DNA of 32,356 nt, from positions 1 to 32,356 of the forward strand of contig DASQBE010000068.1 in assembly GCA_035635355.1 (NCBI GenBank), in the 5' to 3' direction. Shown here piece after piece: positions 6,250 through 28,410 of this stretch; position 1 is the first letter of the stretch; every line of letters starts with the position of its first letter. This DNA comes from Candidatus Binatia bacterium. Its GTDB lineage: Bacteria; Eisenbacteria; RBG-16-71-46; SZUA-252. The translations under genes were made by a program, and so were the position numbers. A model generated the notes under the pieces. That model was given only the letters and a program-made list of their open reading frames with translations, made no database searches and had not been told where the DNA came from.

Positions 6250-6576
6250 GTGCTCACCTCTCCGGAGCAAGGGGCGACGCCCGCCGAGATCAGGAAGAAG
6301 GCCGGGGAAGGGATCGTGATCCGCTGGGAGGGCGGCCACTCGAGTACGTTCGGCGCGCGCTTCCTGCGCGGACGCTGCCCGTGCGCCCAGTGCGTGAGCG
6401 AGACCACGGGCCAGAGACTCGTGACGGACGAGCACATCGATCCCGGCGTCAGGATCGAGACCGCGCGCACCGTCGGGAACTACGCGCTCCACTTTTCCTT
6501 CAGCGACGGCCACACCACCGGAATCTACAGTTTCGACTACCTGAGACGCATCTGCCCCTGCGAGGACTGTGCATGA
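6250..6576 (+). CDS. DUF971 (gamma-butyrobetaine hydroxylase-like N-terminal domain) protein
   Basis: GTG at 6250, immediately after the mrp TAG. IRWEGGHSSTFGARFLRGRCPCAQC...VGNYALHFSFSDGHTTGIYSFDYLRRICPC matches the DUF971 pattern as I recall it. This family is commonly found next to mrp/apbC. Confidence 0.75.
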   Translation: MLTSPEQGATPAEIRKKAGEGIVIRWEGGHSSTFGARFLRGRCPCAQCVSETTGQRLVTDEHIDPGVRIETARTVGNYALHFSFSDGHTTGIYSFDYLRRICPCEDCA

Positions 6577-7556
6577 AGATCGAAACGACGCTGTCCGGGA
6601 GCTTTCCCAAGCTCCCGCTCGAGCCCGGCGCGCCGAACGTGCGGGTGATTCGGAACCGGATGGATCAGAGCAAGGCGACCGAGAAGGATCTCTCGGACGC
6701 GGCCCGCGAGACCACGCGCCGCATCGTGGCCTTGCAAGAGTCGGCGGGCGTGGACATCCCGGTGGGAGGCCAGGTGGCGTGGGACGACGCGCAGACCTTC
6801 TTCGCGCGCGGGGTCCCGGGGTTCACGATCGCGGGGCTCATCCGCTACCTCGACACGAACACCTATTACCGCCAGCCCGAGATCACCGGTAATGTCTCCT
6901 GGGCGCGTCCGGTCACGGTCGAGGACTACCGTCTGGCGCAGGGCATGGCGCACCGCCCGCTCAAGGCGTTTCTTCCCGGCCCCTATTCCCTGTACCGGTT
7001 CTCGCGCGACCTCCATTACAAGGATCCCAAGGAGGCGCTCGCGGCCGTCGGAGAGGCGCTGGGCCGCGAGGCGCAGGCCCTCGAGGAAGCCGGCGCCACG
7101 TGGATCCACTTCGAGGAGCCCTGGATCGGCCGCGCGCCCGCCTCGGAAGCGCCGCACGTGGCCGCCGCGCTGACCCCTCTGTTGCGCGGCCGGAGAGCGA
7201 AGACCGTGATCCACGTTCCGTTCCGCTCGCCCGCGGCGGTGTTCGGCGCGATCCGCGATCTTCCCTGGACCGTCCTCGGGCTCGACCTGGTCGAGGCGGC
7301 CGACGCGTGGGATCTGATTCCGGAGGTGCCGGCGGGGCGGACCGTCGCCCTGGGCCTCGTGGACGCGCGGAACACGCTCCTCGAGGATCCCGCGCGCGTC
7401 GCCGATAGCGTGCGCCGCGCGCGCTCGATGCGATCCGACCTCTCCTGGCAGCTCTGCACGACCGCGAGCCTCGAATACTTGCCGGTCGACCGCGCGGCGA
7501 TGAAGGTCGCGCGGCTCACCGAGGCCGCGCGCCTCGCATCCGCGAACGGAGGATGA
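6573..7556 (+). CDS. Cobalamin-independent methionine synthase N-terminal-domain-like protein (Meth_synt_1-like; no zinc ligands)
   Basis: ATG at 6573 overlaps the DUF971 stop (ATGA). 327 aa. IRYLDTNTYYRQPEITG resembles the MetE KWFDTNYHYxVPE box, GLVDARNTLLED resembles the GxxDGRNIW box. IHVPF and LCTTASLEYLP replace the H-x-C and DCGL zinc motifs. Confidence 0.7.
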   Translation: MKIETTLSGSFPKLPLEPGAPNVRVIRNRMDQSKATEKDLSDAARETTRRIVALQESAGVDIPVGGQVAWDDAQTFFARGVPGFTIAGLIRYLDTNTYYRQPEITGNVSWARPVTVEDYRLAQGMAHRPLKAFLPGPYSLYRFSRDLHYKDPKEALAAVGEALGREAQALEEAGATWIHFEEPWIGRAPASEAPHVAAALTPLLRGRRAKTVIHVPFRSPAAVFGAIRDLPWTVLGLDLVEAADAWDLIPEVPAGRTVALGLVDARNTLLEDPARVADSVRRARSMRSDLSWQLCTTASLEYLPVDRAAMKVARLTEAARLASANGG

Positions 7557-7558
7557 TC

Positions 7559-8536
7559 ATGCCGCGTGGGCTCTGGACCACGACTGTCGGAAGCTTCCCC
7601 AAGCCGCCCCATCTCGAGAAGGCGCGGAACCAGTTCGCGCGCGGCGAGATCACGGCGGACCAGCTCCGGGCGCTGGAGCGCGACGCCACGATCGAGGTGA
7701 TCCGGTCCCAGGAGGAGATCGGGCTGGACATCCTCGTGGACGGGGAGCTCTACCGCGGCGACATGACCACGTATTTCGCCGAGCTGATGGAGGGATTTCA
7801 GATCTCGAACCCGGTCCGCTCGTACGGCAACCGCTACTACCGGAAGCCGGTGGCGACGGGGCCGGTCCGGCGTACCAAGTCCTGGACCGTGGACTGGTGG
7901 AAGTTCGCGCAGAGCCAGACCAAGAAGCCGGTGAAGGGGATGCTGACGGGGCCGTACACGATGATGGACTGGTCCTTCAACGAGCACTATCCCTCGCGCG
8001 AAGCGCTCGCCATGGACCTGGCGGAGGCGATCCGCGAGGAGGCGATGGCGCTGGCCGAGGCGGGCGCCACGTTCATCCAGGTGGACGAGCCCGCGATCTC
8101 GGTGCGGCCGGAAGAGCTGAAGCTCGCCGTGCGCGCGCTGGGCCGGGCGGTGGAGGGCGTCAAGGCCAAGACCATCACCCACATCTGCTACGGCGACTTC
8201 GACGTGATCTACCCGGCGCTTCTCGATCTCCCCGTCGACATGATCGACCTCGAAATGGCCAACAGCCGCTACGACCTCCTGGACCGCTTCAAGCAGCACC
8301 GGTTCACCAAGGAGATCGGCTACGGCGTACTGGACGTGCACTCGCACCGGATCGAGACGAAGGAGGAGATCAAGCAGGGCATCCTCCGAGGGCTCGAGAT
8401 CTTGAAGCCGGAGCAGATGTACATCGATCCCGACTGCGGCCTGAAGACCCGCACGGTGGAGGAAGCGAAGGAAAAGCTCGCCGTGATGGTCGCGGCGGTC
8501 CGGGAGGTGCGGGAGGAGCGGGGCATCACGGCGTGA
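7559..8536 (+). CDS. metE: Cobalamin-independent methionine synthase catalytic (C-terminal) domain protein, core-MetE-like
   Basis: All Zn ligands present: THICYGDF (His, Cys), IDLEMANSR (Glu), DPDCGLKTR (Cys). VRSYGNRYYRKPVATGPV matches the Meth_synt_2 box. ATG at 7559 lies 5 nt after GGAGGA. The alternative ATG at 7553 overlaps the upstream stop. Confidence 0.85.
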   Translation: MPRGLWTTTVGSFPKPPHLEKARNQFARGEITADQLRALERDATIEVIRSQEEIGLDILVDGELYRGDMTTYFAELMEGFQISNPVRSYGNRYYRKPVATGPVRRTKSWTVDWWKFAQSQTKKPVKGMLTGPYTMMDWSFNEHYPSREALAMDLAEAIREEAMALAEAGATFIQVDEPAISVRPEELKLAVRALGRAVEGVKAKTITHICYGDFDVIYPALLDLPVDMIDLEMANSRYDLLDRFKQHRFTKEIGYGVLDVHSHRIETKEEIKQGILRGLEILKPEQMYIDPDCGLKTRTVEEAKEKLAVMVAAVREVREERGITA

Positions 8537-10483: not shown

Positions 10484-11628
10484 AGTTCTTCCGGCTGATC
10501 CTCGCCAACCTCATGCGCTCGAAGCGGCGCACGTTCCTCACCACCTTCTCGATCGCCATCGCGCTCTTCCTCTTCTGCACGCTGCGCACCGTGATCACCT
10601 CCTTCGAGGCTTCGCTCCGCGCCTCCGAGGCCACGCGCCTCGTGGTGCGCCACGGCGCCTCCCTGGTCTTCCCGCTGCCGCTCTCCTACGAGGACCGGCT
10701 GGCCCGGGTGCCCGGCGTGACCGGCGTCACCTACGGAAACTGGTTCGGCGGCGTCTATCAGGATCCGAAGAACCAGTTCGCGCAGTTCGCCATGGACGTC
10801 CCGACCATGTTCGATCTCTTCCCGGACACGGTCCTCCCGGAGGACCAGAAGAAGGCGTTCCTGGCGGAGCGCACGTCCTGCATCGTCGGCCGCGCGCTCG
10901 CGAAGAAGTTCGGCTGGAAGATCGGGGACGCCGTGCCCATCCTCGGAACGATCTACCCGGGCGACTGGCGGTTCGTGATTCGTGGGATCTACGAGGGCCG
11001 GACGAAGGACGTGGACGAAAACACCCTCTTCTTCCACTGGGACTACTTGAACGAATCGCTGCCGCAGGGCCGCAAGGATTATGTCGGGATCTACTGGCTT
11101 CGGATCGCGTCGCCCTCCATGGCCGCGGCGGTGAGCGAGCGCGTGGACGACATGTTCCGGAACAGCTCCCAGCCCACCAAGACCGAGACCGAGAAGGCCT
11201 TCCAGGCGGGATTCATCTCCATGATCGGGAACATCCAGCTCCTCCTGACCATCCTGGGCTCGGCCATCGTGTTCGCGATCATGCTGGTGACGATCAACAC
11301 CATGATGATGGCGGCCCGCGAGCGGACCACGGAGATCGCGGTGCTGAAGACCCTGGGCTTCTCGGACGGGCTGATCCTGCGCCTGGTGGGAGGGGAGGCG
11401 CTCCTCGTCTCGCTGGTCGGGGGGGTGCTGGGCTGCGGCCTGGCCGCGCTCATCTTCCACGAGATGGATTTCACGGGCGGAGGGTTCTTCCCGAATTTCC
11501 GCGTCCTCCCGGAGACCATCCTGGCCGGGCTCCTGCTCGCGGTGCTCATGGGCGTCCTGAGCGGCGTGGCGCCCGCCGTGTCGGCGGCGCGGCTCAGGAT
11601 CGCCAACGCGCTGCGCAAGGTGGCCTGA
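10480..11628 (+). CDS. ABC transporter permease, FtsX/MacB-type (4 TM with large periplasmic loop)
   Basis: GTG at 10480 overlaps the ATPase stop (GTGA). [33 protein letters not shown]-terminal TM helix, C-terminal FtsX domain ([31 protein letters not shown]). Confidence 0.85.
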
Positions 11629-26048: not shown

Positions 26049-27404
26049 ATGGAGGTGAATTCACTGACGCGGTTTCGGGCCTTACTCTTTCTCCTTGTCG
26101 CGGCGGGGCTTGCGGCACTGAGCCCAAGGCTGATGGGGAAGGGCACGCCATGCGACATCCTGATTCAGAGCACCACGGATGTGTACGGCGAACTCGCTCC
26201 CTGTGGCTGACACGCTCACCCGCTAGGCGGACTCGCCCGGAGGGCGAGTCAATTCAAGGTAGGCGCCCTGAAGTTCCCCAACCACTTCCGCGTGGATTCG
26301 GGTGACTTCTTCGGCACGGCCGGGGAGCAGGACTCCCTGAAGACCGAGTTCATGGTCCAGGCCATGGACAAGCTCGGGTACGACGTCGTGACCGTGGGCG
26401 AGCGCGAGTTCAATTTCGGCCAGGCGTTCCTGCTCAACACGTTCAAGAAGACGAAGATCGACCTCGTCTCCTCCAACCTGGTCTATGCCGATACGAAGAA
26501 GCCCTTCACGAAACCTTACGTCATCCGCAAGATGTGCTCGGCCCGCGTCGCGTTCTTCGGCCTCATCGGCACCGACGTGAAGCTGCGGACCCTGGCGAGC
26601 GAGCGCGCCCTCCTGATCCAGGATCCCGTCGCGACCGCCAAGGCCCTCGTTCCGGAGCTGCGGAAGAAGGCGGACGTGGTCGTGCTCCTGTCGCACATCG
26701 GGCTCACCGAGGGACAGCGTCTCACGCTGGAGGTTCCGGGCATCGACGTGATGGTGTTCGGGCATCAGCCCGGCCTCTTCCGTGAGATCACGAAGACGAA
26801 CGGCGTCATCAACACCCGGTCCGGAGAGCGGGGGCAGTACATCCCGGGCATCCACCTGGTCGTGGAGGACGGCAAGATCGCCTCCTACGACGGCGAGGTG
26901 GTCACCCTGGACGACAAGGTGCCCGCGGACGACGAAATGAATCGCTCGGTCGATGCGTTCAACGACGAGATGAACCGGCGCTTCGCGGCCGCTCCCACGA
27001 CTCCGACCCAGGCCACGAACACGAACCTCGCCGGGGACCACTTCCTGGGCGAGAAGAACTGCCGGCGGTGCCACGAGGCCGAGTACCAGATGTACTCCAC
27101 GCAGCAGCACGCCCAGGCGTTCGCCACGCTGACCAAGAACCAGCGGGACGCGTCGCCCGAGTGTCTCCCGTGCCACGTCGTCGGCTACGGCCTACCGGGT
27201 GGATTCTCCTCGAAGGCCGGCACGCCCGACCTCGTGAACGTCCAGTGCGAGAATTGCCACGGCATGGGCACGAAGCACCCGGAGAAGGGGGACGCCGCGG
27301 CGGTGGTGGGCCCGGATGTCTGCCTCACCTGCCACACCCACGAGCAAAACCCGGACTTCGATTACGATCAGGCGCTGACGCACATTGTGCACTGGCATCC
27401 ATAG
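26049..27404 (+). CDS. Exported 5'-nucleotidase/metallophosphoesterase-like domain fused to a C-terminal tetraheme cytochrome c, interrupted by one in-frame TGA at 26208-26210 (candidate selenocysteine; alternatively a nonsense pseudogene)
   Basis: Track ORFs 26010-26210 and 26292-27404 share a frame. My translation of 26211-26291 (HAHPLGGLARRASQFKVGALKFPNHFR) has no stop, and the track start at 26292 is a GTG. The signal peptide (MEVNSLTRFRALLFLLVAAGLAAL) lies only upstream of the TGA, yet the downstream part needs export for its four CXXCH sites (27060, 27162, 27246, 27321). Metallophosphatase-like motifs: TTDVYG, DSGDFFG, LLSHIG, VFGHQ. Confidence 0.6.
26230..26250 (+). promoter_or_regulatory. 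GC-rich hairpin 20 nt downstream of the in-frame TGA (candidate bacterial SECIS apical stem-loop)
   Basis: GACTCGCCC gga GGGCGAGTC: perfect 9-bp stem with a G-initiated 3-nt loop. The loop lies 28 nt after the TGA. Confidence 0.3.
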
Positions 27405-28410
27405 CCTTCGCCTCACGGCGCTCCTCGCGGCCATCGGGCTTCTCCTCTCGACCGGCGCCTCTTCGGGCCAAGTCCTCAAGCTGTCCTCCCTGAGGGTGCC
27501 CGCGGACGTGGCGGCGGGCAGCTGGGTGGCCTACCAGGTCAACGTCTCGTCCAAGAACAGGCCGCCCCGGCGCTTCACCCAGAGGCTGTCGGTCGTCTCC
27601 CGCGAGGGCACCGGGTCCGAGGCCGGAGTCTGGGTGGAGCTGAAGACGATCGAGAGCGGCAAGACGCGGATGGAGCGGGGCTACTTCATGCCCCCGGATG
27701 CCGGAAAGGATTTCGCGGACTCGAGCCTCTACGACGACATGTCCGGGGGCGGGGGGGCGCCGCCTTCCGACGCTTCCGAAACGCCTCAGGCGGCATCGCG
27801 GTCGGGTCCCTCGAGCAGGCTCAAGCTCGCCCGGTACCAGAGGCTCACCCCGGATGGGAAGCTCTACGAGTACCCGGTCGGCGAAGAGGGGGCGCCGATG
27901 ACCGACGAGGAGGTGTCCGCCATGGACATGCTCGAGTTCACGGCGAAGTCGTTCCCGGACACCCTGGCGCCCGACACCCTCCGGGCCGGCCGGAAGGTCA
28001 TCCCCTGCCGCCTGCGGCGCGTGCGCCGCTACGGCACCCAGCAGTGGGAAGGAGACGAGTCCACGTACGTGAACCGCGCCCTGATGACCCGCACTTCATG
28101 GCGTAACCCGTGGATCCCGGTGACGGGCTATGGGCGCCTCGTGGTGGTCGTCTCCGCGGAGCGGGTTCCGATTCACGCCGGCGCTCCCGCGGATTCCGCT
28201 GTCCACGTGGCGTCTCCGGCGCCCCCGGACACGTCGCACGCGGGAACCCCGGCGCCGCAGCCGCGGGAGTCCGGCCCGGATCAGGACTATTTCTACAGGG
28301 CGGACGCCACCCTGGTCGATCTGGGCCGGGATGCCGTTCCGGAGGTCACCCAGGCCGCCGAGCCCGCTCCGCAGGAGTCCATCCCGAAGCCCCGAACCAT
28401 CCTCAAGTAG
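27385..28410 (+). CDS. Hypothetical secreted protein (signal peptide, Gly/Ser/Pro-rich disordered segments)
   Basis: 341-aa ORF. TTG at 27385 is the only in-frame start that preserves the signal peptide (HSLRLTALLAAIGLLLSTGASSG), and it overlaps the cytochrome gene by 20 nt. I recognise no family. Confidence 0.5.
   Translation: MCTGIHSLRLTALLAAIGLLLSTGASSGQVLKLSSLRVPADVAAGSWVAYQVNVSSKNRPPRRFTQRLSVVSREGTGSEAGVWVELKTIESGKTRMERGYFMPPDAGKDFADSSLYDDMSGGGGAPPSDASETPQAASRSGPSSRLKLARYQRLTPDGKLYEYPVGEEGAPMTDEEVSAMDMLEFTAKSFPDTLAPDTLRAGRKVIPCRLRRVRRYGTQQWEGDESTYVNRALMTRTSWRNPWIPVTGYGRLVVVVSAERVPIHAGAPADSAVHVASPAPPDTSHAGTPAPQPRESGPDQDYFYRADATLVDLGRDAVPEVTQAAEPAPQESIPKPRTILK

Follow-up and report, generated by a model that had tools for sequence, protein, structure and literature searches.

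Selenoproteins of an UshA-like (COG0737) family with a CxU motif were listed by Zhang and Gladyshev in 2008 (PMC2398784), and the same family is found in reviews of 2022 (PMC9312934) and 2026 (PMC13188914). It is represented by the curated NCBIfam model NF041198 (UshA_like_PCGU, UshA-like (seleno)protein), in which Sec and Cys forms both exist, as they do among the genes analysed here. The published model of the bacterial SECIS element (bSECIS) has an apical loop of 3-9 nt and an upper stem of 4-16 bp (PMC13188914, Fig. 2 legend), together with a G in the first two loop positions, a distance of 16-37 nt from the UGA to the loop, and an MFE of -7.5 kcal/mol or lower (PMC13188914).

In the present study, we analysed a window (the whole stretch of DNA under analysis, 32,356 nucleotides) from Candidatus Eisenbacteria, in which an earlier note had proposed a candidate novel selenoprotein, of a family that it did not count among the described bacterial selenoproteins. 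The selenocysteine codon was upheld by the aligned column in homologs, by the conservation of the UGA and by a specific hairpin. The novelty was not, as the family has been listed since 2008 and has the curated model NF041198. The best explanation of the locus is, with high probability, one gene that encodes an exported selenoprotein of this known UshA-like PCGU family. With Cys in place of Sec, the protein scored 287.8 bits against NF041198, 13 bits over the curated equivalog cutoff of 275. Profile positions 21-261 correspond to protein residues 34-266, and the C-terminal 154 residues alone gave 115 bits at positions 388-518 of 519; the model thus spans the cytochrome domain too, and both its N-terminal and its C-terminal regions are matched. 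The PCGU motif, which in NF041198 follows the first beta-strand, is present in the window as APCG-UGA-H.

Reading frame and domain layout

The open reading frames 26049-26207 and 26211-27404 are in the same frame, with codon 54, a TGA at 26208-26210, as the sole internal stop. The features of the gene are as follows.

26049 to 27404, forward strand: read-through coding sequence of 451 residues, with predicted Sec as residue 54 and the stop codon TAG at 27402-27404
26049 to 26138, forward strand: N-terminal export signal, approximately residues 1-30 (MEVNSLTRFRALLFLLVAAGLAALSPRLMG), identified by eye, its end approximate
26148 to 26981, forward strand: UshA / 5'-nucleotidase-like (calcineurin-fold) domain, approximately residues 34-311, with degenerate metal-ligand motifs
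26202 to 26210, forward strand: codons TGT GGC TGA for Cys52-Gly53-Sec54, the predicted Sec-UGA being 26208-26210
26230 to 26250, forward strand: putative bacterial SECIS hairpin, with stem GACUCGCCC at 26230-26238, loop GGA at 26239-26241 and stem GGGCGAGUC at 26242-26250
27015 to 27401, forward strand: C-terminal tetrahaem cytochrome c554-like domain, with CXXCH sites at 27060-27074, 27162-27176, 27246-27260 and 27321-27335

After the TGA, no candidate start codon occurs for 27 codons, until the GTG at 26292. In the upstream piece of 53 codons, GC3 is 0.72 in the shared frame versus 0.62 and 0.51 in the other frames, and a tblastn search aligned orthologous loci across the TGA over query residues 1-450. 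Among the 22 high-GC3 genes of the window, 14 are terminated by TGA, so that this codon has not been reassigned, and an internal stop is present in the target gene alone. The earlier note had described two same-frame ORFs joined by a single TGA in a Cys-Gly-UGA context, no downstream start before the GTG, and TGA as the normal stop of most genes in the window, and on all of these points our results agree with it.

As judged by eye, the N-terminus has the features of a signal peptide, namely a basic n-region (R8 and R10) followed by hydrophobic residues 11-24, and hydrophobic N-termini comparable to it were found in full-length Cys homologs and in distant Sec homologs. The SoxB and CpdB models gave weak matches to the N-terminal domain. 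Sequence matches of the UshA-like domain in the PDB are 3jyf, 5eqv and 2z1a, and the AF2 model of a Cys homolog (P0123) resembles the N-domains of CD73 and UshA over ~305 residues (Foldseek). The C-terminal part matched Pfam PF13435 (Cytochrome_C554; E = 3e-16, 60.5 bits against a gathering threshold of 20.8). Its four CXXCH sites (CRRCH, CLPCH, CENCH and CLTCH) are invariant in the family alignments, and exactly four such sites occur in 142 of the best 150 representatives. The order proposed before, a signal-peptide ORF (again, judged by eye) upstream of four CXXCH sites, agrees with these results. Haem attachment to CXXCH needs export (cytochrome c maturation).

The UGA codon and its downstream hairpin

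We surveyed the codon 54 column in 80 related genome loci. It is TGA in 68 genes (the one of the window included), TGC or TGT in 25 genes, and nothing else. The TGA is kept in 26 of 26 close orthologs at 65-91% identity and is also present in most homologs of 34-40% identity, all remaining homologs having TGC or TGT; conservation of the UGA thus covers identities between about 34% and 91%. Its presence at the same column in 67 further, independently assembled genes is not a matter of chance. Conservation of the peptide STTDV.G...PCG[U/C]H.P.GGLARRAS extends to both sides of the UGA, and the Cys and Gly codons just 5' of it vary synonymously (TGT/TGC and GGC/GGT/GGG). In the scored loci, all 67 Sec genes and all 24 Cys genes have P51 and C52, and two residues past C52 solely UGA or Cys was found; across the Sec genes, G53 is invariant as well. 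Full-length homologs of just 25-38% identity conserve C52 and the Cys of the Sec column at 90% or more, and at the DNA level two distant representatives have the same layout, with a signal peptide, PCG, TGA and then GGLARRA. Inspection of this column had been suggested beforehand, together with the statement that homologs carry PCGC here, and the alignments confirmed that statement, with Sec or Cys as the only occupants.

The hairpin of the window sits within the codons for G-L-A-R-R-A-S. It has a stem of 9 bp, a GGA loop starting 28 nt past the UGA and a free energy of -16.1 kcal/mol; its apical loop of 3 nt is at the lower limit of the SECIS model. All four published bSECIS criteria hold for this hairpin, and they hold in 68/68 Sec genes versus 2/25 Cys genes. 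In every one of the 68 TGA genes, the stem is uninterrupted (7 or 9 bp) and the loop is GGA or GGC, 25 or 28 nt from the UGA. A search of Rfam matched no SECIS or other family, as expected because bacterial SECIS elements are gene-specific.

One possible alternative is that the UGA is read through without Sec, by near-cognate insertion of Cys or Trp or by structure-stimulated read-through. A stable hairpin 3' of a stop codon can stimulate read-through in some systems. Furthermore, we found no Sec machinery in the window or in 1.22 Mb of related flanks: tblastn with E. coli SelA, SelB and SelD detected no selA, selB or selD in these flanks, and ARAGORN detected no tRNA-Sec in the window or in 60 loci. 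These absences say little, because the search was confined to local flanks. However, the hairpin agrees with all the bacterial SECIS constraints, including the loop G and the 16-37 nt spacing, the UGA alternates solely with Cys across paralogs, which is the classic Sec/Cys signature, and both the curated model and the literature treat the family as one of selenoproteins. We consider read-through without Sec to be very improbable.

We also rejected several candidates. A 94-nt 'tRNA-Ala' adjoining the Sec gene in one related locus (L050) is a false positive without Rfam support. In a scan of the flanks for further selenoprotein genes, marked by an in-frame TGA with a hairpin, a recurring match (L061, L038, L028, L051 and L077) is an off-frame TGA; the true frame at this match, as read by eye, is FVTTAGFEDLLEIGRQDRP. 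A match of the same kind within the window, at 11558, is apparently off-frame, as judged from ORF coordinates only.

Another explanation is that there are two products, a 53-residue peptide ending at the TGA and a cytochrome translated separately from the GTG at 26292. This is the model that gene callers give for the best 120 homologs, with small orphan ORFs upstream. However, a product starting at 26292 would be without a signal peptide and yet have four CXXCH sites, whose haem attachment depends on export. Protein-level conservation extends over the 27 codons from the TGA to the GTG and over at least 20 codons ahead of the TGA, and both flanks align residue by residue with single-chain Cys homologs. 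Two separate products would also leave the UGA-specific hairpin without a reason, and we regard them as very unlikely.

The hairpin itself might be a by-product of coding GGLARRAS in a GC-rich genome, with no recoding role, since its stem is wholly inside conserved codons. In fact, the fold of the whole region was not significantly more stable than those of shuffled sequences (z = -1.65), and the MFE of a 66-nt segment did not separate Sec from Cys genes. The high GC content of the DNA makes the whole-region MFE uninformative, and only the register-specific analysis of the hairpin is informative. In that analysis, a stem of at least 7 bp was found in 0/25 Cys genes versus 68/68 Sec genes, although the peptide encoded by most Cys paralogs is identical or almost identical; they lose the stem through other synonymous codons. 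The hairpins of Sec genes have an MFE of -13.7 kcal/mol on average, those of Cys genes one of -6.3 kcal/mol (p about 1e-13). Covariation is seen between the Leu and Ala codons at their third positions (CUC..GCG, CUG..GCC and CUU..GCA), and the stem has compensatory changes (CUC..GCG to CUG..GCC, and A-U to G-C), with a double compensatory change in 15 sequences at one pair and in 5 at another. As a control, 92% of cells are paired in the true register versus 16-52% with the partners slid. Furthermore, LARRAS is near-invariant in Sec genes (66/68), while Cys genes drift to RRAA, RRAT and RIAS. A hairpin without a recoding role is thus hardly credible. The reading of the TGA as an assembly or sequencing error, or as a pseudogene made by a nonsense mutation, for which a lone stop in an intact ORF resembles a recent mutation or a base-call error, is effectively refuted by the same-column TGA in 67 further genes, which derive from independent assemblies and studies and span 34-91% identity, by purifying selection on both flanks and by a column that is only ever TGA or a Cys codon.

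There is strong support for reading the in-frame UGA as a Sec codon that joins a single exported protein, because the column holds Sec or Cys only, the UGA is conserved over this whole range of identity, and a UGA-specific, covarying, SECIS-like hairpin follows it. On this comparative evidence, the ribosome would pass the UGA at 26208-26210 without terminating. The hairpin at 26230-26250 would work as the bacterial SECIS element through its GGA loop and recruit SelB with Sec-tRNA(Sec), and Sec would be placed at residue 54.

Public records of the family

In the best 120 database homologs, 64-84% of the query is covered (mostly 80-84%) and the N-terminus is missing. The public records are truncated proteins of ~370 aa, named 'multiheme c-type cytochrome' or hypothetical protein, because gene callers take the UGA as a stop and begin again further downstream. 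About 117 of the best 150 representative clusters begin right after the Sec column, and thus the family appears to be mostly Sec-containing and systematically truncated in databases. The gene of the window is therefore mis-annotated, as are many relatives in MAGs of soil and groundwater, lacking the signal peptide and having a small orphan ORF upstream, which skews inventories of selenoproteins and of cytochromes. In Eisenbacteria, tandem Sec and Cys paralogs occur.

Our literature search for Eisenbacteria with selenocysteine or selenium found, in the library covered, no report pairing them. The gene offers indirect evidence for the use of selenocysteine by Candidatus Eisenbacteria. The selenoprotein itself is no discovery; the new part is only its occurrence in Eisenbacteria, with truncated public records.

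Putative function and comparison with known proteins

The dimetal ligand set of catalytic metallophosphoesterases (DxH, GD, GNHE, H and GH) is not present in the protein. In the window, DVY stands for DxH and GEREF for GNHEF. None of the 67 Sec genes has the His of DxH or the N-H of GNHE, while the Asp of GD is kept in 25, the His of motif IV in 25 and the His of motif V in 32. These positions are not conserved in distant homologs either. The Pfam Metallophos model scored 17.6, below its cutoff of 21.5, and no Pfam match was obtained for a C-terminal 5'-nucleotidase substrate-binding domain, Cytochrome_C554 being found there instead.

The invariant P-C-G-U-H loop directly follows motif I of a domain in which the classical metal ligands are largely lost. 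As the phosphoesterase ligands are not conserved, the likely function is that of a haem-linked redox site formed by Cys-x-Sec. From these patterns of conservation alone, the protein would act as a redox enzyme of the periplasm rather than as a phosphoesterase, and the Cys52/Sec54 couple may be the reactive centre, trading electrons with the haems. Invariant residues flanking this couple are His55, Arg64, Arg65, Asp44, Asp83 and Asn143. The conserved neighbours, which are LptD, an unknown secreted protein and PilB/PilC/pilin, gave no hint of function. The loss of ligands, the invariant C-G-U-H loop and the four haems point to a redox enzyme worth characterising. Somewhat more tentatively, and with slightly less than even confidence, we propose that the PCGU family as a whole may be a widespread periplasmic redox enzyme, with Cys-x-Sec on a ligand-less 5'-nucleotidase scaffold wired to four haems, that is mostly Sec-containing and has been hidden by systematic truncation. 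Under this proposal, the pocket with the invariant His and the Arg-Arg pair would hint at an anion as the substrate, such as an oxyanion of sulfur, selenium or arsenic.

Compared with UshA, CD73 and CpdB, the N-terminal fold is the same, and the GG..R.A helix and the 'SxN' motif are common to both. However, DxH is replaced here by DxY/K/F/N and GNHE by [GS][ED][RK][ED], and the Asp of motif II and the His of motifs IV and V are each present in less than half of the Sec genes. Furthermore, the C-G-U loop is inserted after motif I, and the nucleotide-binding C-terminal domain is replaced by the tetrahaem cytochrome. After NF041198, the best-scoring characterised family is the thiosulfohydrolase SoxB (TIGR04486; residues 79-311), although its score of 86.9 bits is far under the cutoff of 550. 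SoxB is a periplasmic protein of the same fold that acts in sulfur redox metabolism; unlike the window protein, it has a dimanganese site and is without the haem domain and the C-x-U motif.

Among other selenoproteins, ExtKL also has a cytochrome c554-type domain, and UshA-like family 2 is likewise UshA-like. The model NF049981, whose listed motif is CxxU and not CxU, gave 50.8 bits for the window protein against a cutoff of 140, and a profile search with NF040886 gave no match. The closest known system is NF041198, the UshA-like CxU family, whose profile includes the P-C-G-U motif together with an UshA-like domain at the N-terminus and a multihaem region at the C-terminus, as in the window protein. 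Between the two there is no structural difference; the window contributes a member from Candidatus Eisenbacteria whose score is barely over the cutoff of the model.

Reading frame and codon 54

The gene frame as read from the window sequence is the following.

26049-27404, + strand: frame of the gene, ATG at 26049 to TAG at 27402-27404

Only one TGA, at 26208-26210 (codon 54), interrupts this frame. The upstream part, MEVNSLTRFRALLFLLVAAGLAALSPRLMGKGTPCDILIQSTTDVYGELAPCG, has a basic n-region and a hydrophobic core followed by mature sequence, and the GC3 of this 53-codon piece peaks in the frame common to the downstream part. After the TGA the frame continues as HAHPLGGLARRASQFK..., with 27 codons until the first possible start, GTG at 26292, beyond which lie a 5'-nucleotidase-like region and then four CXXCH sites. 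Every detail that the earlier note described (single frame, lone TGA, distance to the GTG and CXXCH sites) was confirmed. Its remark that TGA is the usual stop in the window also holds: 14 of the 22 high-GC3 window genes end in TGA, and the present gene alone among the 22 has an internal stop.

The best 120 homologs from a search of 5.8 billion proteins are 291-386 aa long (117 of them 349-386 aa), span only 64-84% of the query (mostly 80-84%), with the N-terminus missing from every one of them, which is the outcome of gene callers stopping at the in-frame UGA. We fetched 80 genomic loci, nearly all from Candidatus Eisenbacteria MAGs of many studies, and aligned them by tblastn. Codon 54 is TGA in 26 of 26 close orthologs (65-91% identity) and also in most homologs of 34-40% identity; all others have TGC or TGT, and no further codon was seen. 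The earlier note had proposed inspecting this column, which holds solely TGA or Cys codons. The peptide STTDV.G...PCG[U/C]H.P.GGLARRAS is kept on both sides of it, the Cys and Gly codons directly upstream vary synonymously, and C52 and the Cys of the Sec column reach 90% conservation or more even when full-length homologs of only 25-38% identity are aligned. At the sequence level, this alternation is the classic Sec/Cys signature, and its presence across homologs rules out two independent genes split at the TGA, a pseudogene, and an assembly error at 26208-26210.

At many of the 80 loci, the TGA copy has a Cys-codon paralog in tandem with it. In the more distant subfamily, which shares about 35-40% identity with the window protein, the Sec copy is followed by one or two Cys-codon paralogs about 200 nt downstream; therefore, these organisms carry both versions next to each other.

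Arrays of Sec and Cys paralogs (fetched locus: positions in the locus)
L030: 7100, 8625
L034: 10061, 11592
L047: 331, 1965
L063: 10052, 11670
L075: 10139, 11670
L049: 10061, 11678, 13230

In the long-read assembly of L035, the Cys paralog from 11588 onward reads ...PCGCHTPKGGLRASRGVRG..., out of frame, and its near-identical counterpart in L034 reads ...GGLARRAAFADSVR...; the cause is probably either an indel error or a frameshift of recent origin.

The hairpin downstream of the UGA

26230-26250, + strand: predicted SECIS hairpin with a perfect 9-bp stem, GACUCGCCC, loop GGA, GGGCGAGUC

Since the hairpin is embedded in the codons of the conserved G-L-A-R-R-A-S peptide, the Cys paralogs are the fair control: most of them encode this peptide or one almost identical to it. 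When 68 TGA genes and 25 Cys genes were compared with the peptide as the anchor, an uninterrupted stem of 7 or 9 bp, with the loop GGA or GGC 25 or 28 nt past the UGA, was present in all 68 TGA genes, and a 7-bp stem was reached in none of the 25 Cys genes. In the Sec genes, GCC, CGG and [AC]GG are fixed at the Ala and two Arg codons, and the Leu codon and the second Ala codon change together at their third positions (CUC..GCG, CUG..GCC, CUU..GCA); different synonymous codons are found in the Cys genes. Counted over the alignment, 92% of cells pair in the stem, versus 16-52% with the partners slid. Double changes were found in 15 sequences at one stem pair and in 5 at another, the observed covariation score was matched by none of 500 shuffles, and RNAalifold returned the same stem. 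The constraints described for bSECIS elements are a loop of 3-9 nt, a stem of 4-16 bp, G in the first two loop positions, a spacing of 16-37 nt and an MFE <= -7.5 kcal/mol (PMC13188914). All four bSECIS constraints hold for 68/68 Sec genes versus 2/25 Cys genes, and the mean hairpin MFE is -13.7 kcal/mol in Sec genes versus -6.3 kcal/mol in Cys genes (p about 1e-13). The DNA of two further representatives, from other metagenome and sequencing-run assemblies, encodes a signal peptide, ...PCG, TGA and ...GGLARRA with a similar stem.

Immediately 5' of the SECIS stem, at window 26220-26229 (alignment columns 19-21 with 27-29), there is an additional short helix, CCG..CGG in the window's clade and CCC..GGG in the distant clade. 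It is built by Pro and Gly codons, with 26 double changes at one pair, and since the Cys genes carry similar Pro/Gly codons, it may be a by-product of coding rather than a lower stem of the SECIS element.

A scan for further selenoprotein genes (TGA, then a hairpin) returned a recurring site (L061:18526, L038:18136, L028:11280, L051:17033, L077:18060), where the TGA is off-frame; this is not a second selenoprotein. By eye, the true frame there reads FVTTAGFEDLLEIGRQDRP, a conserved coding sequence. The selA, selB, selD and tRNA-Sec genes were found neither in the window nor in 1.22 Mb of related-locus flanks. ARAGORN called a 94-nt tRNA-Ala(cgc) at L050:6420-6513, about 180 nt upstream of the Sec gene of that locus; Rfam finds no tRNA there, so in such GC-rich DNA the call is most likely false.

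Fold, neighbourhood and possible function

The AF2 model of P0123, the closest full-length Cys homolog, is confident (pLDDT 89.5, pTM 0.84), and in its N-terminal domain about 305 residues superpose on CD73, UshA and CpdB, in agreement with sequence hits to 3jyf, 5eqv and 2z1a. These alignments place the C-G-U loop directly after metallophosphoesterase motif I. The classical dimetal ligands are not retained in the 67 Sec genes: the DxH His is replaced by K, Y, F or N in all of them, GNHE reads [GS][ED][RK][ED], and the motif II Asp, motif IV His and motif V His are present in 25, 25 and 32 genes, respectively. Distant homologs likewise show no conservation at these positions. Invariant or nearly so are D44, P51-C52-G53-U54-H55, G60-G61, R64-R65, D83, N143 and the haem sites. 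From this residue pattern, we infer that the protein may be a periplasmic redox enzyme and not a phosphoesterase; electrons would pass between the Cys/Sec couple and the four haems, and a pocket of His and Arg-Arg might accommodate an anionic substrate. An alternative possibility, in which a remodelled metal site has Cys and Sec as ligands, could apply to the window's clade, since D86, H216 and H239 are kept there.

The neighbouring genes (LptD, an uncharacterised secreted protein, and PilB/PilC/pilin) are syntenic in 26/26 close orthologous loci, within the reach of each contig, and gave no functional clue. The next gene, 27385-28410 (+), begins about 20 nt before the selenoprotein gene ends. 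Its product has a hydrophobic N-terminus and matches nothing in Pfam or NCBIfam; the gene is syntenic in orthologous loci and fast-evolving (30-68% identity, versus 69-96% for the neighbouring PilB). Elsewhere in the window, the adjacent, slightly overlapping ORFs 6381-7556 and 7553-8536 (+) match Meth_synt_1 and Meth_synt_2, the domains of cobalamin-independent methionine synthase; this appears to be MetE split in two genes, or two MetE-like paralogs.

Family identity and annotation

When the part after the UGA was searched exhaustively against 1.84 billion representatives, 581 clusters were found at E <= 1e-30. Among the best 150 representative clusters, exactly four CXXCH sites were counted in 142; 33 run the full length and keep the (P)CGC..GG motif intact, and about 117 begin at a start codon shortly after the Sec column; the TGA was confirmed in DNA for only two, and thus the truly Sec-containing share is an estimate. 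All 120 best homologs likewise start shortly after the Sec column, and truncation of the family in public protein sets seems to be systematic. The N-terminal piece is dropped, or called as a small orphan ORF of 47-60 aa (L083:1306-1488, L084:1285-1428).

The gene is predicted, with strong support, to encode a selenoprotein, and we consider this very probable. Of the earlier note's "candidate novel selenoprotein", the selenoprotein part is supported by the Sec/Cys column and the hairpin; the novelty is not. The main interest of the gene is the annotation lesson and the question of family function, and is otherwise low. Our literature search found no paper linking Eisenbacteria to selenocysteine.

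Pfam finds a Cytochrome_C554 domain and a Metallophos match below threshold. The NCBIfam equivalog NF041198 (UshA_like_PCGU, UshA-like (seleno)protein) matches at 287.8 bits against a cutoff of 275, and the C-terminal tetrahaem part alone aligns to profile positions 388-518 of 519 (115 bits); therefore, the curated model already holds the whole architecture of UshA-like domain, PCGU motif and cytochrome. The GOS study lists "COG0737, UshA-like, CxU" with 76 Sec sequences and 92 Cys homologs (PMC2398784), and the family is included in a 2022 review (PMC9312934) and in a 2026 review that ties it explicitly to NF041198 (PMC13188914). Because the family is curated and published, the earlier note was wrong to place it outside the described selenoproteins: the gene adds a new member, mis-annotated in public records, to the known UshA-like PCGU selenoprotein family.
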